Part shown: positions 21,220 through 32,566 of the stretch, in pieces
How the letters are laid out: every line of letters starts with the position of its first letter
How positions within the stretch are numbered: position 1 is the first letter of the stretch
Assembly (NCBI GenBank): GCA_963787355.1
Contig: CAWBCP010000005.1
Coordinates: 58,032 to 122,031 of the forward strand
Direction of reading: 5' to 3'
Source of the DNA: an uncultured Planctomycetaceae bacterium
Lineage (GTDB): Bacteria; Planctomycetota; Planctomycetia; Pirellulales; PALSA-1355
DNA length: 64,000 bases
Position numbers and translations under genes: made by a program
Notes under the pieces: model-generated
What the model was told of the DNA's origin: nothing
Databases searched by the model: none
The model's input: the letters and a program-made list of their open reading frames with translations, nothing else

Positions 21220-21657
21220 CTGCCCCCATAACCGTCACAAGTTTCAGCCTTCTGCACTCGTCCGCGGCGGTGGTGAGGAGCTGGCCATGCAGTTCCTTGA
21301 CCACGCCAAACCGACTTTCAGGAAAAAAGTTTCTGCGAACCACCGAAACCTTTCCGGCGTCTAAGGTGTATAAGAGGGGTCGGGGCCGCGTGGGTGTCCG
21401 ATCGCTGTTTTGACGAGCTTTTACGAGTTGTTCCTTCCATGATGTTCTTACGGCCAAGACTGTTCCAAGAACGGATAGCCGGGAGTTATTGCGCGCAGCA
21501 CAAACGACAGCTGCAAGGTAATTCCCCCGCGCTACCGCTACGCTTGTGACGCTTGGCCTTTAGGTCTGCTGGCTGCCAAAGCCCGGTGTCACAAGGACAT
21601 CGGGCTTTTTTGTTGGCCTCATGTCGCGCGATAGCGGGAACCAAACAACAAACGAAT

Positions 21658-21729
21658 GGGTCGGTAGCTGAGACGGTTTAGCGGTGGCCTGAAAAGCCGC
21701 AGACGAGGATTCGAGCGCCTCCCGACCCA
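21658..21729 (+). tRNA. tRNA-Phe(GAA)
   Basis: Acceptor gggtcgg/ccgaccc; anticodon stem gtggc/gccgc, loop ctGAAaa; T-loop ttcgagc (A53:G61 mismatch). Confidence 0.7.
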
Positions 21730-21765
21730 CTGCGCTCAGCGTACGCGCTGACGGAAGACACACAC

Positions 21766-21838
21766 GGCTCGTTCGTCTATCGGTTCAGGATACTGCCCTT
21801 TCAAGGCGGAGAGGTGGGTTCGATTCCCACACGAGCTA
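21766..21838 (+). tRNA. tRNA-Glu(TTC)
   Basis: Acceptor ggctcgt/acgagct; anticodon loop ctTTCaa; T-arm gtggg-ttcgatt-cccac. Confidence 0.75.
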
Positions 21839-21857
21839 CTGCAGGGAGAAAACACAT

Positions 21858-21929
21858 CGGGAGGAAGAGGAACGGTGCCTCGCGTGCCTTGGGAGCACGA
21901 GATCGCGGGTTCGACTCCCGCCTTCCCGA
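21858..21929 (+). tRNA. tRNA-Pro(TGG)
   Basis: Acceptor cgggagg/cttcccg; D-stem gagg/cctc; anticodon stem cgtgc/gcacg, loop ctTGGga; T-arm gcggg-ttcgact-cccgc. Confidence 0.75.
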
Positions 21930-21930
21930 C

Positions 21931-22001
21931 TGTCCGGTGTTGTAACGGAAGCATAGCGATCTGATACGTCGCCGGCGGTGGTTCGACTCCACCTCGGACA
22001 A
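21931..22001 (+). tRNA. tRNA-Ile(GAT)-like (non-canonical D-arm)
   Basis: Acceptor tgtccgg/tcggaca; anticodon stem gcgat/gtcgc, loop ctGATac; T-arm ggtgg-ttcgact-ccacc; D-stem pairs poorly. The gene starts 1 nt after the previous tRNA. Confidence 0.5.
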
Positions 22002-22070
22002 CTGACCACGAGGAGAACTTCACATGATGCAGACCACGCCGACTCAAACGCATACGCCCACTCCACATTT

Positions 22071-22142
22071 GGGGTCGTGGCGTAACGGCAGCGCTTCCGC
22101 CTTTTAAGCGGGAAGGTAAGGGTTCGACTCCCTTCGGCCCCA
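22071..22142 (+). tRNA. tRNA-Lys(TTT)
   Basis: Acceptor ggggtcg/cggcccc; anticodon stem tccgc/gcggg, loop ctTTTaa; T-arm aaggg-ttcgact-ccctt. Confidence 0.7.
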
Positions 22143-22170
22143 CTGCGTTGGCTTTGGCCAGCGATCGCGG

Positions 22171-22244
22171 CGGCGCGTAGCTCAGTGGTTGAGAGCAGGT
22201 CTCTTATAAGGACCAGGTCGAGGGTTCGATTCCCTCCGCGCCGA
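22171..22244 (+). tRNA. tRNA-Ile(TAT) (unusual anticodon)
   Basis: Acceptor cggcgcg/cgcgccg; D-arm tagctcagtggttgagagc; anticodon stem ggtct/ggacc, loop ctTATaa; T-arm gaggg-ttcgatt-ccctc. Confidence 0.65.
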
Positions 22245-22286
22245 TGGTGCGCGCAGACACGACAACGAGAAGCAAAACACGAACAC

Positions 22287-22360
22287 GGGATCAAGGTGTT
22301 AGCGGCAGCATGCCTGGCTCTTAACCAGGTCGGTGAGGGTTCAAGTCCCTCTGATCCCAC
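22287..22360 (+). tRNA. tRNA-Lys(CTT)
   Basis: Acceptor gggatca/tgatccc; anticodon stem cctgg/ccagg, loop ctCTTaa; T-arm gaggg-ttcaagt-ccctc. Confidence 0.7.
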
Positions 22361-22371
22361 TTGAACGAAAG

Positions 22372-22455
22372 GCACTGGTCGTCCAGCGGCGAGGACTCCG
22401 CACCCGGGCACACCGTAGATCGGCGGCGACGTGGGTTCGAGTCCCACCCGGTGCT
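22372..22455 (+). tRNA. tRNA-like, type II length (84 nt), anticodon arm unresolved
   Basis: Acceptor gcactgg/ccggtgc; D-stem gtcc/ggac; T-arm gtggg-ttcgagt-cccac. The 34 nt between D and T arms do not fold into a canonical anticodon arm. Confidence 0.4.
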
Positions 22456-22487
22456 CTGATCTTTGACAATTCGACCAGCGATTCGAC

Positions 22488-22558
22488 GCGCCCATGATGT
22501 AGCGGTAGCCTGCTGCCTTGCCATGGCGGAAGTGCGGGTTCAACTCCCGCTGGGCGCT
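22488..22558 (+). tRNA. tRNA-Gly(GCC)
   Basis: Acceptor gcgccca/tgggcgc; anticodon stem ctgcc/ggcgg, loop ttGCCat; T-arm gcggg-ttcaact-cccgc. Confidence 0.65.
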
Positions 22559-22566
22559 TTTCGTTT

Positions 22567-22640
22567 CGGTGCGTGGGATAGCTTGGAAACCCGCGTGCTT
22601 CGGGAGCACGAGATCGGCGGTTCGAATCCGCCCGCCCCGA
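22567..22640 (+). tRNA. tRNA-Pro(CGG)
   Basis: Starts cggtg... like E. coli proK; anticodon stem cgtgc/gcacg, loop ttCGGga; T-arm ggcgg-ttcgaat-ccgcc; one acceptor mismatch. Confidence 0.7.
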
Positions 22641-22647
22641 CCTTTGC

Positions 22648-22721
22648 CAGGGTGTAGCGAAGCCTGGCATCGCGCAAGCTCGGGGAGCTTGAGATCGCAG
22701 GTTCAAATCCTGCCACCCTGA
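22648..22721 (+). tRNA. tRNA-Pro(GGG), with C at position 33
   Basis: Acceptor cagggtg/caccctg; D-stem gcga/tcgc; anticodon stem caagc/gcttg, loop tcGGGga; T-arm gcagg-ttcaaat-cctgc. Confidence 0.6.
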
Positions 22722-22728
22722 CTCATAT

Positions 22729-22803
22729 TGCGGTGGGGCCTGTGTTGGTACAGGCAGGCGCCTGTTAAGCGCCCCTTCGCAGGTTCGATTCCTGCCGCCG
22801 CAG
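22729..22803 (+). tRNA. tRNA-Asn(GTT)
   Basis: Acceptor tgcggtg/cgccgca; D-stem gcct/aggc; anticodon stem ggcgc/gcgcc, loop ctGTTaa; T-arm gcagg-ttcgatt-cctgc. Confidence 0.75.
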
Positions 22804-22823
22804 CTTTTTGCGAATGCAATACG

Positions 22824-22906
22824 GAAGGGCAAGCCAATGGGCGATGGCAGCTGTTTCGAAAACAGTCGAGCGATAAGCCTTGAGGGTTCGACTCCCTCTC
22901 CTTCCG
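22824..22906 (+). tRNA. tRNA-Ser(CGA), type II
   Basis: Acceptor ggaaggg/tccttcc; anticodon stem gctgt/acagt, loop ttCGAaa; long variable arm; T-arm gaggg-ttcgact-ccctc. Confidence 0.65.
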
Positions 22907-22910
22907 CTTC

Positions 22911-22982
22911 GTGCTCTTGGCCGATCGGCAAAGGCGTCAGCCTTCCAAGCTGAACAGGCGGGTTCGATTCCCGCAGAGCACT
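22911..22982 (+). tRNA. tRNA-Gly(TCC)
   Basis: Acceptor gtgctct/agagcac; anticodon stem tcagc/gctga, loop ctTCCaa; T-arm gcggg-ttcgatt-cccgc. Confidence 0.75.
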
Positions 22983-22995
22983 TTCGATCAATCAT

Positions 22996-23066
22996 TCGGG
23001 GATCGGCTAACGGTAGGCCGCCTGGCTTTGAATCAGGCTATGGAGGTTCGATTCCTTCTCCCCGAA
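22996..23066 (+). tRNA. tRNA-Gln(TTG)
   Basis: Acceptor tcgggga/tccccga; anticodon stem cctgg/tcagg, loop ctTTGaa; T-arm ggagg-ttcgatt-ccttc. Confidence 0.7.
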
Positions 23067-23082
23067 CTCCGCTGAAACACAT

Positions 23083-23157
23083 TCCGGGGTAGCTGCTGCT
23101 GGTAGTGGCGCCTGGCTCTGAACCAGGAGGTCGTTGGTTCGATTCCAACCCCCGGAA
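23083..23157 (+). tRNA. tRNA-Gln(CTG)
   Basis: Acceptor tccgggg/ccccgga; anticodon stem cctgg/ccagg, loop ctCTGaa; T-arm gttgg-ttcgatt-ccaac. Confidence 0.75.
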
Positions 23158-23176
23158 CTGAAACGGGAGCGACGGA

Positions 23177-23262
23177 CGCGAAACTCCGGCCGGATGAGGA
23201 GCCTGTCTTGAAAACAGGTGGCGGCCAAGCCGCTTGTGAGTTCGAGTCCGCACGCAGGCGGC
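23177..23262 (+). tRNA. tRNA-Ser(TGA)-like, degenerate (acceptor and T-stem do not pair)
   Basis: Clean anticodon arm cctgt-ctTGAaa-acagg and variable stem gcggc-caa-gccgc. The T-loop ttcgagt is flanked by the non-pairing gtgag/ccgca, and no complementary acceptor is found. Confidence 0.35.
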
Positions 23263-23281
23263 TTCCGCTCGCAAGACGATC

Positions 23282-23368
23282 GGGCTCATCGTCCAACAGG
23301 AAGACGCCAGCTCCGCACTGGCCCGTGTTCACTGTAGGACGCGGCGGGTGCAACTCCCGGTGAGTCCA
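23282..23368 (+). tRNA. tRNA-like pseudogene, paralog of the two tRNA-Ala genes (G3:U70 acceptor) with ~18-nt insertion
   Basis: Acceptor gggctca/tgagtcc is identical to tRNA-Ala(GGC) at 25451. The anticodon loop reads ctCCGca, there is extra sequence before the T-arm, and the T-loop is tgcaact (G at position 55). Confidence 0.4.
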
Positions 23369-23382
23369 CTCAAACAAAACAC

Positions 23383-23453
23383 AGTCCCGTGGTCCAACGG
23401 CACGACTTCTGGCTCACATCCAGACAACGATGGTTCAACTCCATCCGGGACTA
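23383..23453 (+). tRNA. tRNA-Val(CAC)
   Basis: Acceptor agtcccg/cgggact; anticodon stem tctgg/ccaga, loop ctCACat; T-arm gatgg-ttcaact-ccatc. Confidence 0.7.
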
Positions 23454-23459
23454 CTCGAT

Positions 23460-23536
23460 GCCCAGGTACGCCAATTGGCAGAGCGGCACGGCTAGACGAA
23501 CCCGCGCGGATGCCGGTTCGACTCCGGCCTTGGGCA
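23460..23536 (+). tRNA. tRNA-like (77 nt), anticodon arm unresolved (a ctagac motif suggests TAG)
   Basis: Acceptor gcccagg/cttgggc; T-arm gccgg-ttcgact-ccggc. The central region forms only a 4-bp stem with a 15-nt loop. Confidence 0.4.
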
Positions 23537-23545
23537 CTGGATGTG

Positions 23546-23908
23546 TTAGATGCTTGGCAGACAACTGCCGTACCGTTGCCAGGTCGGGTCTGCAACCTCT
23601 TCAAATTCGACTCGATAGTCTGGATGAGTACCCGTCAGCCTGGAAAGCACCTGAGATAAGTCTGCCGCATCCCCCAAATACACGTAGTACTCACGGATTC
23701 CGCGACTAGCAATTCGCATGACATAAACGGCCCAGCCGTGCCCGAGTTCGTCCCACAGCTTGATCAATGAATCTTCGACAGCATCGAGGCTCTGCGATTC
23801 GTCGGGATCCCAGAACGCTGTACCGGGATCGAGCTGACAATAGACACCGAACCATGCTAGAGCGCGGTAGCTCGTGTACTGGTGCCGAAGTGCGAAATCG
23901 ATCATCAA
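23546..23908 (-). CDS. hypothetical protein (120 aa) embedded in the tRNA array
   Basis: ATG-initiated ORF with protein-like composition and lower GC than flanks; no recognisable family. Confidence 0.45.
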   Translation of the reverse strand: MMIDFALRHQYTSYRALAWFGVYCQLDPGTAFWDPDESQSLDAVEDSLIKLWDELGHGWAVYVMRIASRGIREYYVYLGDAADLSQVLSRLTGTHPDYRVEFEEVADPTWQRYGSCLPSI

Positions 23909-24036
23909 TCAGAATCTGGGCCGATCGACCATCAATCTCCGAAATGCGATGTGACCAAGCCATAACGTGGATCTCACGACTGGGACCATCGGAATGCTCT
24001 CAACAGTATATACGCCCGTCATCGCAGCCAACAAGC

Positions 24037-24109
24037 GGCTCGGTAGGCAACGGCAGACCACTTTGGCTTAGACCCAGGGATGCTGTGGGTTCGAGTCCCA
24101 CCTGAGCCA
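24037..24109 (+). tRNA. tRNA with anticodon TAG (Leu-decoding) but type I architecture (73 nt, 5-nt variable loop)
   Basis: Acceptor ggctcgg/ctgagcc; anticodon stem tttgg/ccagg, loop ctTAGac; T-arm gtggg-ttcgagt-cccac. Confidence 0.6.
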
Positions 24110-24126
24110 CTTGAAACAAATCACTC

Positions 24127-24201
24127 GTCCTCGTGGAGCAGCCTGGAGTGCTCGCCAGCCTGTCACGGAGGAGATCACGGGTTCAAATCCCGTCGGGGAC
24201 G
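24127..24201 (+). tRNA. tRNA-Asp(GTC)
   Basis: Acceptor gtcctcg/cggggac; D-stem gagc/gctc; anticodon loop ctGTCac (stem has 2 mismatches); T-arm acggg-ttcaaat-cccgt. Confidence 0.65.
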
Positions 24202-24206
24202 CTTGC

Positions 24207-24280
24207 GGCACGGTACGCCAACTGGCTGAGCGGCGAAGCTCAAACCTTCGTGTCTGCGGGTTCGACTCCCGCCTGTGCCA
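24207..24280 (+). tRNA. tRNA with anticodon CAA (Leu-decoding) but type I architecture (74 nt)
   Basis: Acceptor ggcacgg/ctgtgcc; anticodon stem cgaag/cttcg, loop ctCAAac; T-arm gcggg-ttcgact-cccgc. Confidence 0.6.
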
Positions 24281-24286
24281 CTGATC

Positions 24287-24373
24287 GGGTTGTGCTCCTC
24301 GTGGCGGCCTGTAAAGCCGTCGTCACAAAACAAGCGAGGTGGGCGACGAGAGGTTCAATTCCTTCACAACCCA
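24287..24373 (+). tRNA. tRNA-Tyr(GTA), type II
   Basis: Acceptor gggttgt/acaaccc; anticodon stem cggc/gccg, loop ctGTAaa; long variable arm; T-arm gagag-gttcaatt-cc. Confidence 0.7.
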
Positions 24374-24383
24374 TTTTATTAAA

Positions 24384-24456
24384 GGCCCGTTCGTCTATCG
24401 GTTCAGGACACCAGCCTCTCAAGCTGGAAGGGCGGGTTCGATTCCCGCACGGGTCA
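24384..24456 (+). tRNA. tRNA-Glu(CTC)
   Basis: Acceptor ggcccgt/acgggtc; anticodon stem ccagc/gctgg, loop ctCTCaa; T-arm gcggg-ttcgatt-cccgc; paralog of the tRNA-Glu(TTC) at 21766. Confidence 0.75.
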
Positions 24457-24461
24457 CTCAT

Positions 24462-24544
24462 GGCCAAGTGGTGTAATTGGTAAACACGCGACGCTCAGAA
24501 CGTCGTGCCTTCATGGCGTGGGAGTTCGAGTCTCCCCTTGGTCA
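24462..24544 (+). tRNA. tRNA-Leu(CAG), type II
   Basis: Acceptor ggccaag/cttggtc; D-stem gtgt/acac; anticodon stem cgacg/cgtcg, loop ctCAGaa; 14-nt variable arm; T-arm gggag-ttcgagt-ctccc. Confidence 0.75.
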
Positions 24545-24652
24545 CTGAAATATTGGCAGGCAAGAACCTGTCGATTGACGCAGGCGAGCCAGTGCTCAGC
24601 TGGGCCTCATAAGCCCGGACCGTCGGGTGCGACACCCGAGCCTGCAACTTAC

Positions 24653-24728
24653 GGCCGGGTACGCAAACTGGTAAAGCGACGAGGTCGAGAGCCTCGTGAT
24701 TCTGTGAGTTCGACTCTCACCTCGGTCA
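24653..24728 (+). tRNA. tRNA with anticodon GAG (Leu-decoding), type I architecture (76 nt), C at position 33
   Basis: Acceptor ggccggg/ctcggtc; anticodon stem cgagg/cctcg, loop tcGAGag; T-arm gtgag-ttcgact-ctcac. Confidence 0.55.
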
Positions 24729-24735
24729 CTCAATC

Positions 24736-24808
24736 GATCCCGTGGTCCAACGGCTAAGACGCCTGGATGACACCCAGGAAAGAGATGGTTCAACTCCATC
24801 CGGGATCA
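24736..24808 (+). tRNA. tRNA-Val(GAC)
   Basis: Acceptor gatcccg/cgggatc; anticodon stem cctgg/ccagg, loop atGACac; T-arm gatgg-ttcaact-ccatc. Confidence 0.7.
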
Positions 24809-24901
24809 TTTTGAAAATCGGTCTGTAGGTGTTTTCGGCGGCACACCAGCAAGCGAGCACGGCTGCCAGGGCGGCAGCCGAGCGCAGTGCGGTAGTTCGC
24901 C

Positions 24902-25334
24902 CTACAGATTGGTGACTCCCGAACACACTAGCAGCAATGCGATGCCGAATATTCCAATTTGAATCAACACCGCGGTCCATTGTCGCGCGATCACGGCAAC
25001 ACTGAGGCCTGTGATCAGCGATACGGAATAAACGACAAGCAATCCCATGGCATCCGTCCAATCGTCCCCACTCAGAGTGATGATCGAACCCGATTGGCGC
25101 GAACAGAAACATGGCTGCCGCGAGCACCTGTAGTGAGGCGGCCACCACGATCGGAATCTCCTTCGGCCCTCGCCAAGCAGCCAACGCGAAGGCACCGCCA
25201 CACAGTATGGTGAGGTAGACAGCGCCGAAGCCAAGGCCGCGCCAGAATACCAGCGCAACGCATGTAAACGTAATGCATATGAGCAATCTGCCGAGACTGA
25301 ATTGAAACCAAGGGTGACTGGAAGACTCCTTCAT
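24902..25334 (-). CDS. small membrane protein (2-4 TM helices), frameshift near 25060; low GC
   Basis: ATG 25334 gives MKESSSHPWFQFSLGRLLICITFTCVALVFWRGLGFGAVYLTILCGGAFALAAW...; the hydrophobic C-terminal part (...LLVVYSVSLITGLSVAVIARQW...GIFGIALLLVCSGVTNL*) continues in another frame and ends at 24902. Confidence 0.4.
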
Positions 25335-25368
25335 GAAGGCATTGTAGTCAATTTCAAATCAAACAAAT

Positions 25369-25439
25369 GGGCTGCTCGTCCAACGGGAAGACGCCTGGCT
25401 TGCAACCAGGAAATCGGGGTTCGACTCCCCGGCGGTCCA
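25369..25439 (+). tRNA. tRNA-Ala(TGC)
   Basis: Acceptor gggctgc/gcggtcc with G3:U70; anticodon stem cctgg/ccagg, loop ctTGCaa; T-arm cgggg-ttcgact-ccccg. Confidence 0.7.
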
Positions 25440-25450
25440 CTGAACAAAAC

Positions 25451-25521
25451 GGGCTCATGGTCCAAAGGGAAGACATCAGGCTGGCAGTCTGAAGATCCGG
25501 GTTCAATTCCCGGTGAGTCCA
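25451..25521 (+). tRNA. tRNA-Ala(GGC)
   Basis: Acceptor gggctca/tgagtcc with G3:U70; anticodon stem tcagg/tctga, loop ctGGCag; T-arm ccggg-ttcaatt-cccgg. Confidence 0.7.
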
Positions 25522-25528
25522 CTGAAAC

Positions 25529-25615
25529 GGAAGGTAGCCGGATACGGTTGGCCGGGCCGCTCTGCTAAGGCGGTTCCCGCTCGTCGGGATGAGGGTTCGA
25601 ATCCCTTGCCTTCCG
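25529..25615 (+). tRNA. tRNA-Ser(GCT), type II
   Basis: Acceptor ggaaggt/gccttcc; anticodon stem ccgct/ggcgg, loop ctGCTaa; 17-nt variable arm; T-arm gaggg-ttcgaat-ccctt. Confidence 0.7.
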
Positions 25616-25633
25616 CTCGTGAACGATACGTGA

Positions 25634-25706
25634 GCCTCGATGGTGAAACGGACGATCACTCCTTGCTTCTAACAAGGCATTCCGGGTTCGAATCCTGGTC
25701 GGGGCA
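25634..25706 (+). tRNA. tRNA-Arg(TCT)
   Basis: Acceptor gcctcga/tcggggc; D-stem gtga/tcac; anticodon stem ccttg/caagg, loop ctTCTaa; T-arm ccggg-ttcgaat-cctgg. Confidence 0.75.
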
Positions 25707-25732
25707 TTTTTGAGGAATACGACAATATATAT

Positions 25733-25807
25733 GGCGTCCGTGGTGTAGCGGTTTCTGCACGTCTGGCTGTGAACCAGAAGGTGGCGGTTCAACTCCGCTC
25801 GGACACC
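25733..25807 (+). tRNA. tRNA-His(GTG) with G-1 (8-bp acceptor)
   Basis: 5' ggcgtccg / 3' cggacacc (one mismatch); anticodon stem tctgg/ccaga, loop ctGTGaa; T-arm ggcgg-ttcaact-ccgct. Confidence 0.65.
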
Positions 25808-25825
25808 CTGAAAGGAAGTGAAGCA

Positions 25826-26422
25826 ATGGTCGCAAAGGTACTGGAACATCCGACGCTGGTCTTGAACCGCAACTGGCAGCCGGTGAACGTGGCCACGGTG
25901 GCTCGGGCGCTGGTGCTGTTGTGGAACGAGTCGGCTCGCGTGGTGGACCCGGCGGACTACCGGCTCTACACCTGGGCCGATTGGTCGGAGCTGCGCCCGG
26001 GCGAAGGCGAGCAGTTCATCCAGGCCGTGCGGCTGCGGCTGCGCGTGCCCGAGGTGATCGTGCTGGCCGAGTACGACCGGCTGCCGACCGCCGCCGTGAG
26101 CTTCAGCCGCCGCAACGTATTCAAGCGGGACCATTGGGCCTGCCAGTACTGCGGCTGCCAGCCGGGCGGCGAAGAGTTGACGATCGACCACGTGATTCCG
26201 CGGTCGCAGGGTGGAACCTCGACTTGGGAGAACTGCGTGTTGGCGTGCATCGGCTGCAACAAGCGCAAGGCCGACCGCACGCCGCACCAGGCCGGCATGC
26301 GGCTCCGCAAGGTGCCGGTCCGGCCGACGTGGAAGCCGATCTACGCCCGCGACAGCGTGCGGATCGAAAGCTGGTCGAAGTTTATCAGCGAGACGTACTG
26401 GAACGTCCCGCTGGAGAAGTAA
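25826..26422 (+). CDS. HNH endonuclease
   Basis: ATG 25826 preceded by GGAAG; HNH motif ...DHWACQYCGCQ...LTIDHVIPRSQGG...ENCVLACIGCNKRK. Confidence 0.75.
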   Translation: MVAKVLEHPTLVLNRNWQPVNVATVARALVLLWNESARVVDPADYRLYTWADWSELRPGEGEQFIQAVRLRLRVPEVIVLAEYDRLPTAAVSFSRRNVFKRDHWACQYCGCQPGGEELTIDHVIPRSQGGTSTWENCVLACIGCNKRKADRTPHQAGMRLRKVPVRPTWKPIYARDSVRIESWSKFISETYWNVPLEK

Positions 26423-26477
26423 CTGAGTTGCCCGGCACAGCGGCACAAATCGCTGTGCCGGGCCTTTGGAGATACGG

Positions 26478-27021
26478 CATGCGAAAAATCAAGTTCACCT
26501 ACAGCAAGACCGACGCAGGCCGCAAGCACTACCTCAACGAGGATGACGTGCGGGTGTTGTTGTCGCGGCTGCCGGAGGAGCTCTGGGAAAAGCTGCAAGC
26601 GGTGCACTTCAACGATAGAGCGTGGGGCAGGCGATGCCTCGGCTACGTGACGAGGGGACACCGCGAGATCACGATTTGTGCTCTGCCAGGTCGGGTCAGC
26701 TTGTCGAGCTGCGTGACTCACCGCTCGATCAAACAGTATGGTGCGGTCCGCGGCCGACAGTGGCCAGAGACCGCGGTGCGCCGTTTCATGCTCTACGACG
26801 TGTTTTTGCATGAGCTGGGCCATTTGCAAGTGGTGCTGCCGAAGGCCGCGAGATTGGGACGCAAGTTTGCGAGCGAGACCAAGGCACAAGAGTTCGCCGA
26901 CTATTGGCGGGAACAACTTTGGCTGGATCGGCTCGACCATCCCGATCCAGTCCACAACGAGGCAGCTAACGAAGAACTGGAACGACTGAACCTCGATGCA
27001 GCAAACTGCCTCGTAACCTGA
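26478..27021 (+). CDS. hypothetical protein (~180 aa)
   Basis: ATG-initiated ORF MRKIKFTYSKTDAGRKHYLNEDDVRVLLSRLPEELWEK... directly downstream of the HNH gene; no family recognised. Confidence 0.45.
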
Positions 27022-27038
27022 GACGAAGTAACAAATAC

Positions 27039-27108
27039 ACGAGTGTGCTCCTGGGAGAGCAGTCAGTCTCCAAAGCTGACGGACGGGGTTCGACTCCTCG
27101 CGCTCGTG
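27039..27108 (+). tRNA. tRNA-Trp(CCA)
   Basis: Acceptor acgagtg/cgctcgt; anticodon stem tcagt/gctga, loop ctCCAaa; T-arm cgggg-ttcgact-cctcg. Confidence 0.6.
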
Positions 27109-27111
27109 CTT

Positions 27112-27185
27112 GCCGACGTGGCTCGAAACAGAAAGGCGCCTGTCTTGTAAACAGGTTGATGCTGGTGCGAATCCAGTCGTCGGCT
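27112..27185 (+). tRNA. tRNA-Thr(TGT), T-loop tgcgaat (G at position 55)
   Basis: Acceptor gccgacg/cgtcggc; anticodon stem cctgt/acagg, loop ctTGTaa; T-arm gctgg-tgcgaat-ccagt. Confidence 0.6.
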
Positions 27186-27198
27186 CTTGAGGATTTGA

Positions 27199-27271
27199 AT
27201 CCCGATGGTGTAGCGGATTTGCATCGGACCCTCCGAAGGTCCGGGCCCTGGTTCGAATCCAGGTCGGGATA
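27199..27271 (+). tRNA. tRNA-Arg(CCG)
   Basis: Acceptor atcccga/tcgggat; anticodon stem ggacc/ggtcc, loop ctCCGaa; T-arm cctgg-ttcgaat-ccagg. Confidence 0.7.
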
Positions 27272-27286
27272 CTTGCGAAGCAAAGC

Positions 27287-27359
27287 GTCTCGCGGGTGTG
27301 CCGGATGAGCACGGCAGTGTTCGAAACTGCAAGACGAGGTTCAATTCCTCGGCGAGGCA
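27287..27359 (+). tRNA. tRNA-Arg(TCG)
   Basis: Acceptor gtctcgc/gcgaggc; anticodon stem gcagt/actgc, loop gtTCGaa; T-arm cgagg-ttcaatt-cctcg. Confidence 0.6.
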
Positions 27360-27378
27360 CTGAAAGGCGACGAGTTGA

Positions 27379-28029
27379 ATGACGATGTTGCGAACAATCC
27401 TAACAGCACTGAGACGAGCTCTGTTTGGCCAGCCTGTGGCCGGCGGGGTGACGGCGAAGCCACCGTCGGCAGAGGCCGTCGCGTGTGCGGTCGTTCATTC
27501 GACGACCGCGGCGGATCGCAGCGAAGGGAGGCTTACCATGAACGCAGCCTATGACAAACTATGCGAACACCTGACCAACCAGAACGTCGGCTTTTGGTCG
27601 CGCAGCGAGGACCTGTCGATCTGCACGGACTTTCGGGGCGAGGTCGGCACGTACCGGATCTTCGCTCGGGTTGACGCTGACGACAGCTTGTTCCAGGTCT
27701 TCGGTCATTCGCCGGTTCGCGTTCCGCCAGGCTCGCGCCCGGCGATCGCCGAGGCCGTGGCGCGGATCAACTGCGGTCTGAAGGTCGGCAAGTTCGAGAT
27801 GGATTGTGACGAGGGCGAGCTGCGGTTTCAGGCGGCCCAGATTCTGCCCGACGACGATCTCGACGAGCAGACGATTCAGCGACTGATTGGTACGACGATG
27901 TCGATGTTGAACATTTACCTCCCGGCCATCCTGTCGGTCATCTACGGCAACGAACTGCCGAAGGATGCCGTCAGGCACGCAGAGCCCGGGCGGTATGTGT
28001 CCGACGAAAACGAGCGCGGTGAGGCCTGA
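27379..28029 (+). CDS. YbjN-domain protein (putative sensory-transduction regulator / T3SS-chaperone-like fold)
   Basis: The core from MNAAYDKLCEHLTNQNVGF...YRIFARVD...GKFEMDCDEGELRFQAAQIL fits the YbjN family. ATG 27379 adds a 53-aa extension; alternative start 27538. Confidence 0.55.
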   Translation: MTMLRTILTALRRALFGQPVAGGVTAKPPSAEAVACAVVHSTTAADRSEGRLTMNAAYDKLCEHLTNQNVGFWSRSEDLSICTDFRGEVGTYRIFARVDADDSLFQVFGHSPVRVPPGSRPAIAEAVARINCGLKVGKFEMDCDEGELRFQAAQILPDDDLDEQTIQRLIGTTMSMLNIYLPAILSVIYGNELPKDAVRHAEPGRYVSDENERGEA

Positions 28030-28043
28030 TCACCGCGCATTTG

Positions 28044-28115
28044 TCCTCGGGGTGTGCCGGATTCGCACGCGACCCTGCGAAGGTCGAGGACCAGGTTCAA
28101 TTCCTGGCGAGGACA
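28044..28115 (+). tRNA. tRNA-Arg(GCG)
   Basis: Acceptor gtcctcg/cgaggac; anticodon stem cgacc/ggtcg, loop ctGCGaa; T-arm ccagg-ttcaatt-cctgg; paralog of the Arg tRNAs at 27199 and 27287. Confidence 0.65.
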
Positions 28116-28457
28116 CTTGACGATGCTGCAAAGCTAATTGGAGAAATCGGTGCACAAGCTGCCCCGGACAAAGATGACCTTGGAGAAGAGAGTGGCCACC
28201 CTGCGCGATGCTAGCCAAGAGCGCAAGCGACACGAGACTTCTGAAGGCGGCAGAAAGAGTGCGTGACGCCAGAATCCAGGTTTTGCGAGCCACGATCGGC
28301 GAGATGCCGTCAGTCAAGCTTACGCCCCATCAACACAGGCGTATTGCGAAACTGGAAGGACAGATTGAGGTGCTTCGCGAAACGTTACCAATCGCAATCC
28401 TGGCAGAGTTTCGCGAAGAGCGACCGACAGAAATCGACGAATTCTAGCCTCGGCTCT

Positions 28458-28685
28458 ATGAAGGAGGTGCCTTATGTGCAGCAACGACTTCAACGACAGC
28501 GCGTTTTTTTCGAAACGATGAGCAAACGGCGGAAGGGCTTCCCATCGGAAACGAAAGTGAAACGCGGAGTCCGCAAGGTCCACGGCGACAAGCTCCTCGA
28601 AGAGAAGCTCGGCCGCAACGACCTGTGCCCGTGTGGCAGCGGAAAACGATTCAAGCAGTGCTGCCTTAAGTCAGGCCGCTTTTGA
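28458..28685 (+). CDS. SEC-C motif (SecA metal-binding-domain-like) small protein
   Basis: C-terminal [19 protein letters not shown]. The start is uncertain (28458, 28518, or the SD-preceded ATG at ~28474 in another frame that would join through a T7 homopolymer at ~28498). Confidence 0.5.
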
Positions 28686-28759
28686 TGGGGTCAACCGTGA
28701 CCACTACTTTTAGAGATTGAACAACTCGCGTCGCCCGCCAGTCCGGCGGGCGGCGCACT

Positions 28760-28831
28760 GACGCTGAAGCCAGACGGCATGGCAACTGCCTGCAAAGCAG
28801 TTCTTAGCGGGTTCGACTCCCGCCGGCGTCT
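28760..28831 (+). tRNA. tRNA-Cys(GCA)
   Basis: Acceptor gacgctg/cggcgtc; D-stem gcca/tggc; anticodon stem actgc/gcagt, loop ctGCAaa; T-arm gcggg-ttcgact-cccgc. Confidence 0.7.
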
Positions 28832-28923
28832 TTGATGATTCCCGCGTATAGGGAACGCTTGAAAAGGGCTCCCGAGATCACTAGACTTGGTGAAACGCCC
28901 GCAAGCAGATCACGGAGTAGCTC

Positions 28924-29949
28924 ATGAAATCGTTCGCTGCAGCCATTCTGATCGCAATGACGTTCGTGCGCGCGGCTGTTGCCGTGCAAATCCATGTGGG
29001 CGATATTGTCGCTCCTCAATTCGACAACGTTGGCACGATAGTTGTAGTTCACACTGACACGGGAAATCGAGAAGTCCTTTCTCACTATCCCGACGTTGGG
29101 CAGGGACCAGCAGAGTACCGACCGACGAGCATCGCGAGATTGCCGGAGGGAGATTTTCTTGTAACGGAGGCGTTTTTCAACCAAGCGCTTTATCGAATTA
29201 GTGCAACAACCGGCAATCGTACTCTCATCTCCGGGATCGCGGAAACGACTCGTGGATCCGGACCCATTGACCATCCTCAAACGGTGCTGTTTAGATCGTC
29301 GGGCGATGCGATCCTAACGAACTCGGCACATCTTAACTACAGCACCGGATTCGTTACTCGCGTGGATTTGACAACGGGAGACCGCACATTGATTTCCGGA
29401 TTGGGAGTGGGAAGCGGGCCGCAATTCGACTATCCCGCAGGTGGTGCAATTGACGCCGCTGGCAAGCTTATCGTTGCGGACAATGCATTACCGGCGATTT
29501 TTAGCGTAGACCTTACAACGGGCGCAAGAACTGTTATTTCCGGCCTGGGGCATGGCACCGGTCCGGCACTTCCAAACATCCAAGACCTTGTGATATTGCC
29601 CGGCGGCCAGATCATGACGGAAGGCAATCATCAGCTGCTTCGCATCGATCCCACAAGTGGGAATCGAACACTAATTTCAACGGCATCAAACGACTACGAG
29701 CGAATTGCACTTGGCGCGAACGGTAGCCTTCTTGCCTCTACGGTAGGAGCGATACTGTCAGTCGATCCCACAACCGGAATCGAAACCGTTGTCTCGGCGA
29801 ACGGGGTCAATAGTGGTCCGAATCTCTTCTGGGGAGATATGGTTGTCGTTCCGGAGCCGACCACTGGAATCCTTTTCGTGCTTGGGATATTTATTCTTGC
29901 GCTCAAACGGTCTGCACGGCTCGTACGTGAACCATCTGACATTGACTAA
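28924..29949 (+). CDS. PEP-CTERM-anchored secreted protein with ~7 imperfect 'TTG.RTLISG' repeats (beta-propeller-like); low GC (~50%)
   Basis: Signal peptide MKSFAAAILIAMTFVRAAVA; repeated (T/S)TG(N/D)RT(L/V)ISG(L/I)... units; C-terminal VVPEPTTGILFVLGIFILALKRSARL. Confidence 0.65.
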   Translation: MKSFAAAILIAMTFVRAAVAVQIHVGDIVAPQFDNVGTIVVVHTDTGNREVLSHYPDVGQGPAEYRPTSIARLPEGDFLVTEAFFNQALYRISATTGNRTLISGIAETTRGSGPIDHPQTVLFRSSGDAILTNSAHLNYSTGFVTRVDLTTGDRTLISGLGVGSGPQFDYPAGGAIDAAGKLIVADNALPAIFSVDLTTGARTVISGLGHGTGPALPNIQDLVILPGGQIMTEGNHQLLRIDPTSGNRTLISTASNDYERIALGANGSLLASTVGAILSVDPTTGIETVVSANGVNSGPNLFWGDMVVVPEPTTGILFVLGIFILALKRSARLVREPSDID

Positions 29950-30069
29950 CGTCGATGTATTGAAGGTTGATTCGGCCGGTTCCAGCGGCGCACGGCGGCT
30001 CGTCCTTGATGAGAGGCGATCGCCGCACGTGTGTTCCGCGAATGGGTTCTGCAGAAGGCTGCGTCTACC

Positions 30070-30145
30070 GTAACCAACAGATGGTTAGCTCAGTGGGTAG
30101 AGCACCAGACTTTGCATCTGGCTGTCACGGGTTCGACTCCCGTAC
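30070..30145 (+). tRNA. tRNA-like remnant (Ala/Gln-type body; acceptor strands not complementary)
   Basis: D-arm tagctcagtgggtagagca, anticodon arm ccaga-ctTTGca-tctgg, T-arm acggg-ttcgact-cccgt. The 5' strand cagatgg cannot pair with the 3' strand accaaac. Confidence 0.35.
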
Positions 30146-32557: not shown

Positions 32558-32566
32558 CGAGAAGCC

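Follow-up and report, generated by a model that had tools for sequence, protein, structure and literature searches.

Background

The L-array of Anabaena offers a described parallel to the locus studied here: it is silent, translational stress induces it, and an HNH gene, RtcB and a slipin (SPFH) protein share its regulation (PMC8421152, PMC10272220). Planctomycetes are already listed among the array-bearing phyla (PMC4758250, PMC8421152), and their 'degenerate tRNA gene clusters' were described by Kim et al. 2016 (PMC4807772). In that study cultured planctomycetes with clusters had 76-96 tRNA genes vs about 46-54 in those without, and canonical tRNA-Ile-UAU was reported only inside the clusters. 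A spare tRNA set of this kind is already known from planctomycetes.

The window, the whole stretch of DNA analysed here, comprises 64,000 nucleotides from an uncultured Planctomycetaceae bacterium of the order Pirellulales. On balance, positions 21337-32599 are probably one copy of a conserved Pirellulales cassette, an accessory tRNA operon of the L-array type that would be switched on by ribosome stalling. An HNH gene and an SPFH-type partner are found in both systems, and the HNH protein of the window has a homologue next to the Anabaena trn operon (36% identity, E 4e-32). The order of the cassette is promoter, leader ORF with a four-segment attenuator, about 34 tRNA genes, HNH gene, six tRNA genes, a ~450-nt structured RNA with a tRNA mimic, SPFH/Band_7 gene and terminator (Table 1).

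Table 1. Features of the cassette and of its variable cargo, in window positions.
Feature	Position	Strand	Remarks
Promoter-like element	21337..21363	+	GAAC-N17-CGTCTA; left edge of conserved cassette
Leader ORF, 36 codons	21439..21549	+	MMFLRPRLFQERIAGSYCAQHKRQLQGNSPALPLRL; UGA stop
Attenuator segment 1	21450..21458	+	ACGGCCAAG; leader codons 4-7; predicted to pair with segment 2 (anti-antiterminator)
Attenuator segment 2	21543..21560	+	CTTGTGACGCTTGGCCTT; leader stop codon inside; predicted to pair with segment 1 or terminator 5' arm (antiterminator)
Intrinsic terminator, segments 3+4, U tract	21578..21613	+	13 pairs (terminator scan); 45 nt upstream of tRNA-Phe
tRNA block 1	21658..25808	+	Phe-GAA to His-GUG; 29 ARAGORN genes and five degenerate units
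tRNA-Ile-UAU	22171..22244	+	top-scoring tRNA of the array, Rfam 70.4 bits
Degenerate Thr-CGU unit	22372..22456	+	12-nt insertion; blastn matches to 33 Thr-CGU genes of related arrays, up to 85% identity
Degenerate Ser-UGA unit	23185..23254	+	94-97% identity to Ser-UGA of related arrays; weak Rfam match, 24 bits
Aberrant 88-nt unit	23282..23369	+	ARAGORN 'Arg-CCG'; Ala-CGC-derived, with insertion
Degenerate Leu-UAA unit	23460..23537	+	91% identity to Leu-UAA of L003; ARAGORN relaxed mode only
DUF695 ORF, inserted	23546..23908	-	variable cargo; Pfam E 1e-12; GC3 0.59
Tyr-GUA-like degenerate unit	24287..24372	+	25 bits, long-arm tRNA-Sec model (weak Rfam support only)
Met-CAU-like unit	24579..24647	+	80-84% identity to Met-CAU of 14 related arrays; uncalled by ARAGORN
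Inserted ORF without family match	24726..25334	-	within 514-nt window-specific insertion; GC3 0.57
HNH endonuclease-family protein, 201 aa	25817..26422	+	Pfam HNH E 4e-15
tRNA block 2	27039..28831	+	Trp, Thr-UGU, Arg-CCG, Arg-UCG, Arg-GCG, Cys (six ARAGORN genes)
YbjN-family ORF	27379..28029	+	occasional cargo; Pfam E 4e-10; between Arg-UCG and Arg-GCG
SEC-C motif ORF	28263..28685	+	occasional cargo; Pfam E 2e-9; in 2 other loci
DUF6923/NHL/PEP-CTERM ORF	28924..29949	+	GC3 0.51; in window-specific insertion 28836-29963
Structured RNA, ~450 nt	30039..30498	+	5' domain 30082-30147 is a tRNA mimic
ORF without family match	30626..31213	+	GC3 0.59; in window-specific insertion 30497-31436
SPFH/Band_7 protein, 370 aa	31445..32557	+	Pfam Band_7 E 1e-32
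Strong intrinsic terminator	32564..32599	+	16-pair hairpin; right edge of conserved cassette

Extent and content of the tRNA array

The earlier note had described a dense array of some 40 tRNA or tRNA-like genes on the plus strand and had named fewer than about 20 tRNAs as the limit against it. ARAGORN, run on the whole window, called 35 tRNA genes, all on the plus strand at 21658-28831, and none in the remaining ~57 kb. The density in block 1 is 7.0 ARAGORN genes per kb. RF00005 at the gathering score backs 29 of the 35, and the Rfam E-value mode added two further units above 29 bits (24653-24728 with 41.3 bits and 22730-22802 with 31.5 bits), so that 31 array tRNAs lie at or above the Rfam tRNA threshold. 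The four weaker ARAGORN calls are a class II Ser-GCU at 25529 (38 bits against the tRNA-Sec model), Arg-UCG at 27287 (24.4 bits), Arg-GCG at 28043 (26.1 bits) and the aberrant 'Arg-CCG'. Adding one tRNA-like element and the five or six degenerate units gives ~41 units, in agreement with the ~40 of the earlier note. The anticodons listed earlier are essentially right, except that Tyr and the third Ser are degenerate units.

None of the array genes encodes CCA, and N73-C-U is found directly 3' of all of them. Both Ala tRNAs have G3:U70; tRNA-His has C73, with a G preceding the gene. In alignments across 47-60 species compensatory changes were found at 11 of 18 pairs in tRNA-His and at 11 of 21 pairs in tRNA-Leu-CAA. 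The array tRNAs are real genes under structural selection.

The gene order of block 1 is common to related loci, and that of block 2, after the HNH gene, to most of them. Gaps of ~100 nt in the array contain degenerate units whose orthologues in related arrays are intact tRNA genes. The Thr-CGU unit was not called by ARAGORN. In the Tyr-GUA-like unit the loop CTGTAAA is visible and the same position holds Tyr-GUA in related arrays; blastn found no match to this unit. Assignment of the aberrant unit to Arg-CCG was rejected: its top blastn matches are Ala-CGC, Ala-GGC and Ala-UGC genes, and its acceptor stem is the same as that of Ala-GGC. With these units, and with insertions on both sides of the structured RNA, towards tRNA-Cys and towards the SPFH gene, this copy of the array may be partly decaying.

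An accessory tRNA set

The array could have been simply the main tRNA locus of the organism, as the earlier note had considered. For Met and Tyr the array has at most degenerate genes, several anticodons are missing, and the array tRNAs score below canonical tRNAs. Canonical tRNAs with the same anticodons adjoin the array in related loci, with 78.7 bits for the canonical vs 57.5 bits for the array Lys-UUU, 71.7 vs 49.7 bits for Arg-CCG, and a length of 84 nt vs 75 nt for Leu-CAA, these housekeeping copies being those seen in related genomes. In L001, whose HNH protein is 97% identical to that of the window, about 20 array tRNAs have been lost and a transposase lies inside the array. The array is a second, divergent and incomplete tRNA set and not the housekeeping set.

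Distribution and genomic context of the cassette

A protein closely related to the embedded HNH is encoded in at least 563 species-representative genomes, nearly all of them from Pirellulales or other Planctomycetia. At least 10 same-strand tRNAs in strongly conserved order were found in 59 of the 83 loci examined, a sample that was retrieved via the HNH protein and is biased towards arrays containing it. The earlier suggestion that planctomycete genomes have no characteristic array of this kind does not agree with these numbers, nor with the literature.

Arrays 90-97% identical to that of the window are bordered on either side by unrelated DNA. The homology shared with L001 and L003 starts exactly at the promoter-like element, and that shared with L001 and L004 stops at the strong terminator. 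One instance of two cassette copies on a single contig was found, and one array copy lies on an IMG/VR contig with a terminase gene 5.5 kb away. The cassette recurs in the same order in many species and in differing genomic contexts, and it behaves as a discrete unit that can be transferred.

In composition only one part agrees with the horizontal acquisition proposed earlier. GC drops modestly across the region (0.57-0.60 vs 0.62-0.67 in the flanks). The small interleaved ORFs look foreign, with GC3 of 0.51-0.66; the HNH gene has 0.90, equal to host genes, and the core was probably not acquired recently from a donor of foreign composition. The DUF695 ORF is absent from all related loci, and the YbjN-family ORF is found at the same position in 7 loci.

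The HNH, YbjN-like and SEC-C ORFs that had been noted between the tRNA genes were all recovered with Pfam. An incidental insertion of the HNH gene was rejected on its position, which is always between tRNA-His and tRNA-Trp, its conservation, the highest in the array, and its host-like codon usage. The protein has 4656 homologues, with identities of 77-98% among the best 120 clusters listed. The HNH gene is the core and most conserved component of the array.

The 3' end of the cassette

The structured RNA was found at full length in 31 loci with nhmmer and matched no Rfam family. Its tRNA-like domain is near-complete, with 51 bits over model positions 4-67 of RF00005. The acceptor stem of this mimic has 3-4 bp and the anticodon loop is unconstrained, with 23 distinct loops in 28 sequences and U33 not conserved. 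Outside the tRNA domain there are 46 pairs, 93.4% paired vs 35-45% in slid controls, and 22 pairs have double changes, a number reached in 0 of 500 shuffles. This covariation-supported RNA at the 3' end of the array appears to be undescribed. The SPFH gene (GC3 0.91) follows the array in 27-31 loci with 66-94% identity; the conserved SPFH gene and terminator after the structured RNA also appear undescribed.

Candidate promoter, leader and attenuator

In 46 of 55 loci the attenuator is preceded, at a distance of 150-215 nt, by the motif GAAC-N16/17-[CT]GTCTA, for which the background rate is 0.03 per 300 nt. On its resemblance to the AAC/CGT consensus of ECF sigma-factor promoters, the element is put forward as a putative ECF-like promoter.

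The leader ORF has 31-45 codons and is conserved in about 39 loci, with the C-terminus [HY]-P-L-R-[LVTM]-UGA. The peptide is conserved despite synonymous codon turnover, with Pro at -4 encoded by CCT (8), CCG (8), CCC (7) or CCA (9) and Leu at -3 by CTG (10), CTA (2) or TTG (25). The reading frame is rich in codons that are rare in the host (TTA 1%, ATA 1%, AGA 3%, CTA 3%, AGT 5%).

An nhmmer profile of the attenuator found 55 loci with one plus-strand copy each. Pairing of segments 1 and 2 is possible in 79.7% of cells vs 19-42% in slid controls (0 of 1000 shuffles as high), and one pair varies between A-T (7), G-C (10) and C-G (6). The antiterminator is paired in 84.7% of cells vs 27-42% in slid controls and is the minimum-free-energy fold of the nascent RNA in 37 of 37 loci (-15 to -42 kcal/mol). 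Its covariation support is modest, as both strands of the helix are highly conserved; for segment 2 the coding sequence and the terminator are further constraints. The terminator is paired in 96.3% of cells, with three covarying pairs. In many loci the gap from the U tract to tRNA-Phe is 3-7 nt, with no room for a promoter between them. In L016, a locus without an array, the same attenuator directly precedes the HNH gene. An ECF-like promoter, leader ORF and four-segment terminator/antiterminator directly upstream of the first tRNA appear to be undescribed.

Proposed regulation

The leader would act as a terminator, antiterminator and anti-antiterminator switch, every regulatory step of which we infer from the sequence. 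The cassette would be a single plus-strand transcription unit from the ECF-like promoter to the final terminator, with a transcription start about 70 nt before the leader ORF and, as a rule, a stop at the terminator just ahead of tRNA-Phe. Smooth translation of the leader to its UGA would let the ribosome cover segment 2, leaving segments 3 and 4 to fold into the terminator; the same hairpin would arise when no ribosome is present and segment 1 pairs with segment 2. Segment 1 would be masked only if a ribosome stalls within the leader, with its many very rare codons (UUA and AUA among them), and segment 2 would then pair with segment 3, giving read-through into the array. The conserved PLRL-stop motif could instead cause a regulated arrest at the stop codon, and the direction of control would then be reversed.

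If stalling inside the leader opens the operon, RNase P and a 3' endonuclease would process the polycistronic RNA, and CCA would then be added, because no array gene encodes it. Faltering elongation, with tRNA depletion or cleavage, starvation or ribosome-targeting antibiotics as possible triggers, would thus release a burst of spare tRNAs with the HNH protein, structured RNA and SPFH protein, and the attenuator would shut the operon again as translation recovers. The translation supplement proposed in the earlier note is plausible, but the conserved leader suggests a conditional rather than a constitutive supply. The putative ribosome-sensing switch in the leader and the 3' structured RNA suggest how such tRNA arrays are turned on.

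tRNA content of the array

ARAGORN called 35 tRNA genes, all on the plus strand and none elsewhere in the 64-kb window. They form a first block of 29 genes and a second block of six (the coordinates of all features are collected in the table). The density is 4.9 genes per kb over the whole array (35 genes in 7174 nt) and 7.0 per kb in the first block (29 genes in 4151 nt). Both the number and the density place the array among the tRNA array units, defined as at least 20 tRNA genes at two or more per kb (Tran et al. 2016). The intergenic spacers are mostly 1-40 nt and the gene order is non-periodic, which corresponds to the layout of L-arrays. When degenerate units and a tRNA-like element are counted with the ARAGORN calls there are about 41 units, in agreement with the approximately 40 tRNA or tRNA-like genes of the earlier note.

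The Rfam tRNA model supported 29 of the 35 genes at its gathering score, and two more exceeded the threshold with laxer filters. It also matched a nearly complete tRNA-like unit downstream of the array, over model positions 4-67 only. Gaps of about 100 nt in the tight spacing hold degenerate orthologues of Thr-CGU, Ser-UGA, Leu-UAA and Met-CAU, all of which are intact in related arrays, and a further gap is occupied by a Tyr-GUA-like unit. The gene that ARAGORN named Arg-CCG is an insertion-bearing gene derived from Ala-CGC. The approximately 35 genes with anticodons, all in a single orientation, cover 19 amino acids. No intact Met gene (initiator or elongator) or Tyr gene is present, and Val-UAC, Thr-GGU, Thr-CGU, Ser-UGA, Ser-GGA and Leu-UAA are missing as well. 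The Rfam scores range from 34 to 70 bits with Ile-UAU at the top (70.4 bits). Low-scoring tRNAs together with one canonical tRNA-Ile-UAU are the mark of the degenerate clusters of planctomycetes, and the array shares it.

None of the 35 genes encodes CCA and all 35 are followed by N73-C-U. The same trailer is found in 1390 of 1656 genes (84%) across all related arrays, with CCA in only 10, which implies endonucleolytic 3' processing and CCA addition. The trailer is absent from two of three canonical flank tRNAs examined.

Bacterial tRNA-Leu normally has a long variable arm. Three of the four Leu isoacceptors in the window (UAG, CAA and GAG) are 74-77 nt long and lack this arm, and the same is true across species, with lengths of 73-80 nt for these three and for the UAA gene of relatives (also noted for loci L086 and L103). 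The Leu tRNAs of the Anabaena array are likewise without the long arm (75-78 nt). The occurrence of short-arm tRNA-Leu also in the Nostoc and Anabaena arrays hints that L-arrays of different phyla share ancestry.

Identity elements are present in the array tRNAs: G3:U70 in both Ala tRNAs, C73 and the preceding G in tRNA-His, and A73 in tRNA-Leu. Among orthologues of 47-60 species compensatory changes were found at 11 of 18 stem pairs in tRNA-His and at 11 of 21 in tRNA-Leu-CAA. Such changes show that the genes evolve as functional tRNAs and not as decaying sequence.

Features of the window, in window positions
Feature	Position	Strand	Remark
ECF-like sigma factor (region 4), Ser/Thr kinase fragment, WD40 protein	14978-18764	+	WD40 protein of 825 aa
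HsdR-like ORF	18807-20039	+	410 aa
Rejected divergent regulator ORF	21131-21457	-
Region of nucleotide homology to closest relatives	21337-32599	+	cassette
Promoter-like motif, leader ORF, four-segment terminator/antiterminator	21337-21613	+
tRNA array	21658-28831	+	35 genes
tRNA block 1	21658-25808	+	29 genes
ARAGORN Arg-CCG	23282-23369	+	derived from Ala-CGC
Short Leu genes	24037-24110, 24207-24281, 24653-24729	+	long variable arm absent
tRNA block 2	27039-28831	+	six genes
3' RNA	30039-30498	+	full length
tRNA-like unit	30082-30147	+	tRNA mimic
RtcB-like ORF	36424-37077	+	C-terminal ~110 residues of RtcB
Acido-Lenti-1 RNA	59048-59101	-	37.4 bits

Related loci and boundaries of the cassette

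Among the 83 related loci, 59 carry at least 10 same-strand tRNA genes, 47 carry at least 20 and nine carry none; many of those with fewer tRNAs end at contig edges. The largest related arrays have 40 genes, and the order is conserved: Phe, Glu, Pro, Ile, Lys, Ile-UAU, Lys, Thr, Gly, Pro, Asn, Ser, Gly, Gln, Gln, Ser, Val, Leu, Leu, Asp, Leu, Tyr, Glu, Leu, Met, Leu, Val, Thr, Ala, Ala, Ser, Arg, His, HNH, Trp, Thr, Arg, Arg, Arg, Cys. Relatives of the embedded HNH protein occur in at least 563 species-representative genomes. The claim that arrays of this kind are not characteristic of planctomycetes can thus not be upheld, and the phylum had already been listed as array-bearing in two surveys (PMC4758250, PMC8421152). 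In nine arrays (L026, L027, L034, L038, L039, L047, L049, L055 and L066) the tRNA-His adjoining HNH belongs to another, more canonical sequence type, which indicates that single tRNA genes are replaced within the conserved order.

Nucleotide homology to the closest relatives (L001, L003 and L004) spans the whole cassette, and their arrays are 85-97% identical to that of the window. Beyond the cassette edges the genes are completely different among relatives; in L001, for example, the upstream side holds a Kdp operon, and HEPN, BrxL and DUF3987 genes follow on the downstream side. No upstream gene recurs in more than four loci, and conserved protein neighbours are limited to HNH and the downstream SPFH/Band_7 protein (27-31 loci), in a comparison where tRNA-overlapping ORFs were excluded from the clustering and targeted tblastn searches were added. 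No flanking repeats were found at the edges, which consist of the promoter-like element and a terminator. A Pfam scan of the ORFs lying up to about 12 kb before and about 7 kb after the cassette gave no integrase, phage or transposase gene that would point to a prophage or an integrative element.

Two complete arrays are located 48 kb apart on contig CAWDRV010000004.1 (L018 and L031), each with HNH, SPFH and an identical leader peptide. Two copies were also seen in two other MAGs (L036/L040 and L045/L065). One IMG/VR contig carries the full cassette with a terminase gene 5.5 kb away, and in locus L002 a resolvase gene and many small unknown ORFs lie upstream. The unrelated flanks around near-identical arrays, the contig with two copies and the copy on a viral contig are the signs of horizontal transfer expected of L-arrays. 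The array is also very widespread in Pirellulales, so that much of its inheritance may be vertical.

The HNH, YbjN-like and SEC-C ORFs that the earlier note had placed between the tRNA genes each have a Pfam match. Several segments of the window are insertions not found in relatives, with ORFs of DUF695, membrane-like and DUF6923/PEP-CTERM types and others. These small ORFs do have the low GC content attributed to them, with GC3 values of 0.51-0.66 vs 0.90-0.91 for the HNH and SPFH genes, the latter being like those of host genes.

Probable accessory nature of the array

In related loci canonical tRNA genes adjoin the array and score far higher than its copies of the same anticodon (Lys-UUU 78.7 vs 57.5 bits; Arg-CCG 71.7 vs 49.7 bits), and a class II Leu-CAA gene of 84 nt is found beside the 75-nt array form. 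Most of the array is gone in the close relatives L001, L038 and L040; L001 has lost about 20 array genes and gained a transposase. According to Kim et al. 2016 (PMC4807772), cultured planctomycetes with clusters have 76-96 tRNA genes vs approximately 46-54 in those without, and the cluster-bearing ones keep a canonical Trp-tuf-Thr-Gly-Tyr-Thr cluster elsewhere.

L-arrays are defined by a single orientation, co-transcribable spacing and non-periodic order, by supernumerary genes whose isodecoders are redundant to a separate housekeeping set and by horizontal spread with patchy distribution and variable context, and they are silent in standard conditions and induced by translational stress (Santamaria-Gomez et al. 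2021). The array of the window is very probably an accessory L-array of this known kind. For the organism of the window itself the accessory status would follow from the pattern in related genomes and in cultured planctomycetes. The attenuator predicted at the head of the array is consistent with stress-induced behaviour.

Leader region

The 320 nt upstream of tRNA-Phe are conserved together with the array. The extent given to the array in the earlier note leaves out the part with the promoter-like motif, the leader ORF and the four-segment terminator/antiterminator. The motif GAAC-N16/17-CGTCTA is present in 46 of the 55 loci, the background being 0.03 per 300 nt; it emerged only when loci were compared, and a scan for sigma-70 promoters gave no match near the array start. 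It appears to resemble ECF sigma-factor promoters, which have AAC in the -35 element and CGT in the -10 element at a suitable spacing. A recurring motif, GGAATAAATCGAC, is found approximately 60-70 nt upstream of the GAAC element in five loci (L024, L032, L046, L052 and L079). An ECF-like sigma factor is itself encoded in the window, in a neighbourhood about 3-6 kb upstream of the array where it is followed by the kinase fragment and the WD40 protein. This neighbourhood is of interest given the ECF-like promoter and is not conserved in other loci.

An ORF on the minus strand was considered as a divergent regulator and rejected, since the conserved frame is that of the leader ORF on the plus strand. 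The leader ORF has 31-45 codons and is present in about 39 loci; its start region is conserved, and so is its end, [HY]-P-L-R-[LVTM]-UGA. Pro at position -4 is encoded by all four codons about equally and Leu at -3 by CTN or TTG, a synonymous turnover that points to selection on the peptide. Codons that are among the rarest of the host abound in the ORF; in 16 of 39 loci the fourth codon is TTA or ATA. It corresponds to the short upstream ORF of a leader-peptide attenuator and is predicted to be translated.

An intrinsic terminator (96% paired, three covarying pairs) is found between the leader ORF and the tRNA genes. Its U tract ends 3-96 nt before tRNA-Phe, with 45 nt in the window and only 3-7 nt in many loci, and in the latter the array must therefore be transcribed through the terminator. 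The antiterminator (2:3) helix is formed by the stop-codon segment and the 5' arm of the terminator. Pairing in this helix reaches 84.7% (slid controls 27-42%), and in each of the 37 loci folded it is the structure of minimum free energy for the nascent RNA. The anti-antiterminator (1:2) helix, between leader codons 4-7 and the stop-codon segment, is 79.7% paired vs 19-42% in controls, a value not equalled in any of 1000 shuffles, and one of its pairs occurs in three Watson-Crick forms (A-T, G-C and C-G). The two helices are mutually exclusive and overlap the leader ORF, as they do in attenuators. A profile of the element gave exactly one plus-strand copy per locus in 55 loci, always at the head of the array.

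The layout is that of the trp, his and pheA attenuators and of the antibiotic-sensing ones of bmrCD, vmlR and mef/mel: a short leader ORF followed by exclusive 1:2, 2:3 and 3:4 helices, the last being the terminator. As in the classical cases, rare codons are located in segment 1 and the stop codon in segment 2. Unlike them, the leader precedes tRNA genes and not genes for biosynthetic or resistance proteins, and it has no run of codons for a single amino acid. The leader peptide itself is conserved, most clearly in the C-terminal PLRL-stop, which hints at an effect of the nascent chain. Rfam has no family matching the element, and full-text literature searches found no tRNA operon with such a leader. 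Taken together, the leader is likely a genuine ribosome-dependent attenuator.

The HNH protein

For the HNH protein (201 aa) 4656 homologues were found; among the best 120 clusters listed, identity to it is 77-98%. The best 80 relatives in species-representative genomes are 71-95% identical and come nearly all from MAGs of Pirellulales or other Planctomycetia. Full-length homologues with 31-40% identity were found in 94 plasmids and in 369 phage records, jumbo phages included. Among the records checked, a homologue stands beside or inside a tRNA array in two Nostoc plasmids, in Anabaena pCC7120delta (36% identity to the window protein, BLASTP E value 4e-32) and in a jumbo phage, Tunturiibacter phage Tunturi_5, where it is inside a 19-tRNA array with genes for a CCA-adding enzyme and RtcB nearby. 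The homologues of Acaryochloris plasmid pREB6 and of one uncultured 595-kb phage have no adjoining array, so that the association between HNH and arrays is frequent but not universal.

In locus L016 (positions 9794-10597) there are no tRNA genes and the attenuator is directly upstream of the HNH gene, which suggests that HNH is itself a regulated product of the operon. The AlphaFold2 model of the protein is poor (mean pLDDT 48) because the homologues available to it were all at least 77% identical. In PADLOC the SPFH and YbjN proteins had no match, and HNH matched only generic HNH domains (PtuB, Cas9 and restriction enzymes); in NCBIfam only sub-threshold matches were found, to the HNH domain of IscB/Cas9 and to HflK. 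Searches for identical sequences gave no record of the HNH, YbjN and beta-lactamase-like ORFs of the window and one of its SPFH protein, from an ENA metagenome contig. Upstream of the cassette, the sole match of one ORF is to domain 3, at the C-terminus of type I restriction R subunits (HsdR); the ORF is possibly a remnant of a defence locus.

The probable 3' structured RNA and the SPFH gene

In relatives a tRNA mimic is found about 120 nt 3' of tRNA-Cys; an insertion displaces the copy of the window. Hardly any variation is seen in its D arm, anticodon stem and T arm, and its acceptor stem is only 3-4 bp long. The anticodon loop is unconstrained, with 23 different loops in 28 sequences, an entropy of 1.7-2.0 bits at positions 33-36 and U33 in 12 of the 28. 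The unit of the window accordingly lacks the features of a decoding tRNA, namely an acceptor stem of 7 bp and conservation of U33 and of the anticodon. The earlier note had described a tRNA remnant here; a tRNA-like sequence is indeed present, and it is not a remnant but the 5' head of a conserved RNA of about 450 nt.

The mimic heads a conserved non-coding region of approximately 350-400 nt. Related loci have no conserved ORF between the tRNA-like unit and the SPFH gene, and the region was therefore treated as RNA. RNAalifold predicted long-range helices. Beyond the tRNA domain there are 46 pairs, which are 93% paired vs 35-45% in slid controls, and 22 of them show changes on both sides, a number equalled in none of 500 shuffles; the structure was derived from the same alignment. 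Full-length copies were found in 31 loci, including the window and the viral contig. The region is most likely a genuine structured RNA.

It has no Rfam family: the YrlA model gave 19.5 bits where 69 are required, and neither GOLLD nor ROOL matched at E values up to 10. YrlA, a bacterial Y RNA, and other tRNA mimics are alike in having a tRNA-like module with D and T arms and a short acceptor stem, a further structured domain and a genomic link to RNA repair (RtcB). Unlike YrlA, the RNA of the window keeps the anticodon stem and has a much larger attached domain, and no rsr/Ro gene was found. A further Rfam match in the window, to the Acido-Lenti-1 RNA (gathering score 37 bits), is unrelated to the array.

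Downstream of the 3' RNA follow the SPFH gene and a strong terminator. An ORF 3.8 kb downstream of the cassette matches RtcB in its C-terminal part only (Pfam E value 5e-24) and is probably a fragment of an RtcB gene.

Comparison with known arrays

The trn operon of plasmid delta in Anabaena/Nostoc sp. PCC 7120 is likewise a long, same-strand, supernumerary array with an incomplete set. It is silent and induced by translational stress; its repressor, TrcR, also represses an HNH gene, RtcB and a slipin (SPFH) gene (PMC8421152, PMC10272220). A homologous HNH gene (all8564) adjoins the Anabaena array on the same strand, as in the two Nostoc plasmid arrays and in the window. The array, HNH, RtcB and SPFH are co-regulated in Anabaena; in the window the array, HNH and SPFH are linked physically, with the RtcB fragment further downstream. 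The gene order differs, HNH being upstream of the array in Anabaena and inside it in the window. Control also differs: Anabaena uses the RHH repressor TrcR at a motif in the -10 box, the window a predicted leader-peptide attenuator and a predicted ECF-like promoter, and nothing convincingly like the TrcR operator of Anabaena (TGTAGTAT) was found at the window cassette. Finally, the Anabaena array is plasmid-borne, while that of the window is chromosomal and has a 3' RNA headed by a tRNA-like unit.

The 'degenerate tRNA gene clusters' of Kim et al. 2016 (PLoS One, PMC4807772) come from the same phylum and are alike in their low-scoring tRNAs, in a canonical tRNA-Ile-UAU found only in the cluster, in duplicated clusters within one genome and in the dispensability and horizontal transfer proposed for them. 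They are described as having 2-28 genes, weak similarity, disrupted synteny and mostly degraded genes. In the family of the window, in contrast, the order is strongly conserved over many species, the arrays have up to 40 genes and the stems covary. As far as the accessible text and supplements of that paper go, HNH is not mentioned and no leader or 3' RNA is described.

Array units of Mycobacterium genomes, plasmids and phages are dense, with at least 20 tRNAs, and HNH is their most widespread CDS (Morgado and Vicente 2018, PMC5966550); HNH homologues of mycobacteriophages match the HNH protein of the window. To judge from a title cited in PMC12286853, the Mycobacterium arrays have the large structured RNA GOLLD embedded, whereas the RNA of the window matches neither GOLLD nor ROOL nor any Rfam family. 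They also differ in phylum, in gene order and in the XRE regulator commonly associated with them.

The array itself is of a known kind; the predicted attenuator, the ECF-like promoter, the fixed position of HNH, the tRNA-mimic RNA and the linkage to SPFH were not found in Rfam or in the literature searched.

Alternative explanations

The 19 amino acids covered, the approximately 35 genes with anticodons in the same orientation and the absence of any further tRNA from the 64-kb window could be those of the main tRNA locus of the organism, a housekeeping operon with the only copies. This is highly improbable given the lack of intact Met and Tyr genes and of several anticodons, covariance scores that fall short of those of the same-anticodon canonical tRNAs flanking related arrays, the loss of most of the array in L001, L038 and L040, and the canonical copies outside the clusters of cultured planctomycetes in Kim et al. 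2016 (PMC4807772). A functionless, decaying relic of an old horizontal acquisition, with at most tRNA-Ile-UAU still in use and corresponding to the 'degenerate tRNA gene cluster' of earlier work, would account for the low scores, the five or six degenerate units in the window and the deletions and IS insertions in relatives; tRNA-Ile-UAU scores best, as in Kim et al. 2016 (PMC4807772). The copy in the window does itself show decay. A relic would not be expected to keep its order over dozens of species-level genomes, to accumulate many compensatory stem substitutions while retaining identity elements and a nearly universal N73-C-U trailer, or to conserve the promoter-like motif, the leader peptide and the attenuator together with highly conserved HNH and SPFH genes of host-like codon usage, and we regard this explanation as unlikely.

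An array of phage or prophage origin is possible. It would serve phage translation or replace host tRNAs destroyed by anticodon nucleases, as phage tRNAs have been proposed to evade tRNA-targeting defences (PMC10264068), and HNH would be a homing endonuclease by which the array spreads. The many phage homologues of HNH, jumbo phages among them, the Tunturi_5 array with its CCA-adding enzyme and RtcB, the planctomycete cassette near a terminase on the IMG/VR contig and the resolvase and small unknown ORFs of L002 all agree with this, and a phage-like context is real for some related copies. The context of the window does not support it: the scanned flanks are free of phage, integrase and transposase genes, the edges are a promoter-like motif and a terminator and not att repeats, and the core protein genes have host-like GC3. 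Moreover, the conservation of HNH (71-98%) is far above that usual for homing endonucleases, and L016 keeps HNH under the attenuator without tRNAs. A phage array is about as unlikely as a relic. Somewhat less likely still is that the leader ORF and hairpin make up a separate small gene with a terminator of its own, or an sRNA, the array being constitutive or driven otherwise. The peptide is conserved at the amino acid level and could be a functional small protein, the terminator is strong, and the U tract of the window is 45 nt away from tRNA-Phe. This gap is just 3-7 nt in many loci, however, the position of the element is invariant across loci, and the stop codon lies within the helix that competes with the terminator, with early codons pairing and covarying with the same segment in the classical attenuator layout.

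Proposed function and significance

The cassette is a conserved and structurally constrained accessory tRNA operon with a leader, an HNH gene, a 3' RNA and an SPFH gene. In the mechanism proposed for it, transcription would normally be terminated before tRNA-Phe. A ribosome stalled in the leader, and nothing else, would free the stop-codon segment to form the antiterminator, and the array would be expressed when elongation falters and be off again as translation recovers. We lean slightly towards this direction of control, with stalling in the leader turning the array on. More tentatively, the cassette may be a self-contained translation-surveillance operon in which an ECF-type promoter and an attenuator sensing stalls at rare codons gate a divergent, nearly complete backup set of tRNAs, with an HNH-family nuclease, an SPFH membrane protein and a tRNA-mimic RNA of about 450 nt, free to vary in its anticodon loop, expressed alongside. 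The recurrence of HNH and SPFH with arrays in two phyla, co-regulated in cyanobacteria and linked in planctomycetes, suggests that they are working parts and not selfish passengers.

Since the first surveys it has been asked what makes bacteria retain long tRNA arrays that seem to be silent. To our knowledge, functional data on silent arrays come from Anabaena only, where control is by a repressor under translational stress. The present family, conserved across hundreds of Pirellulales species, offers an independent and testable logic, that of an array placed behind a sensor of ribosome stalling, and its predictions can be tested in cultured array-bearing planctomycetes such as Rhodopirellula. 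There is good support for the 3' RNA, headed by the tRNA mimic, as a candidate new RNA class whose structure and function merit study. If the cassette is such a surveillance operon, this would be the first tRNA operon under translation-coupled attenuation, a mechanism for 'cryptic' arrays and a new class of large bacterial RNA, and the supply of spare tRNAs in these planctomycetes would be tied to the state of translation itself.
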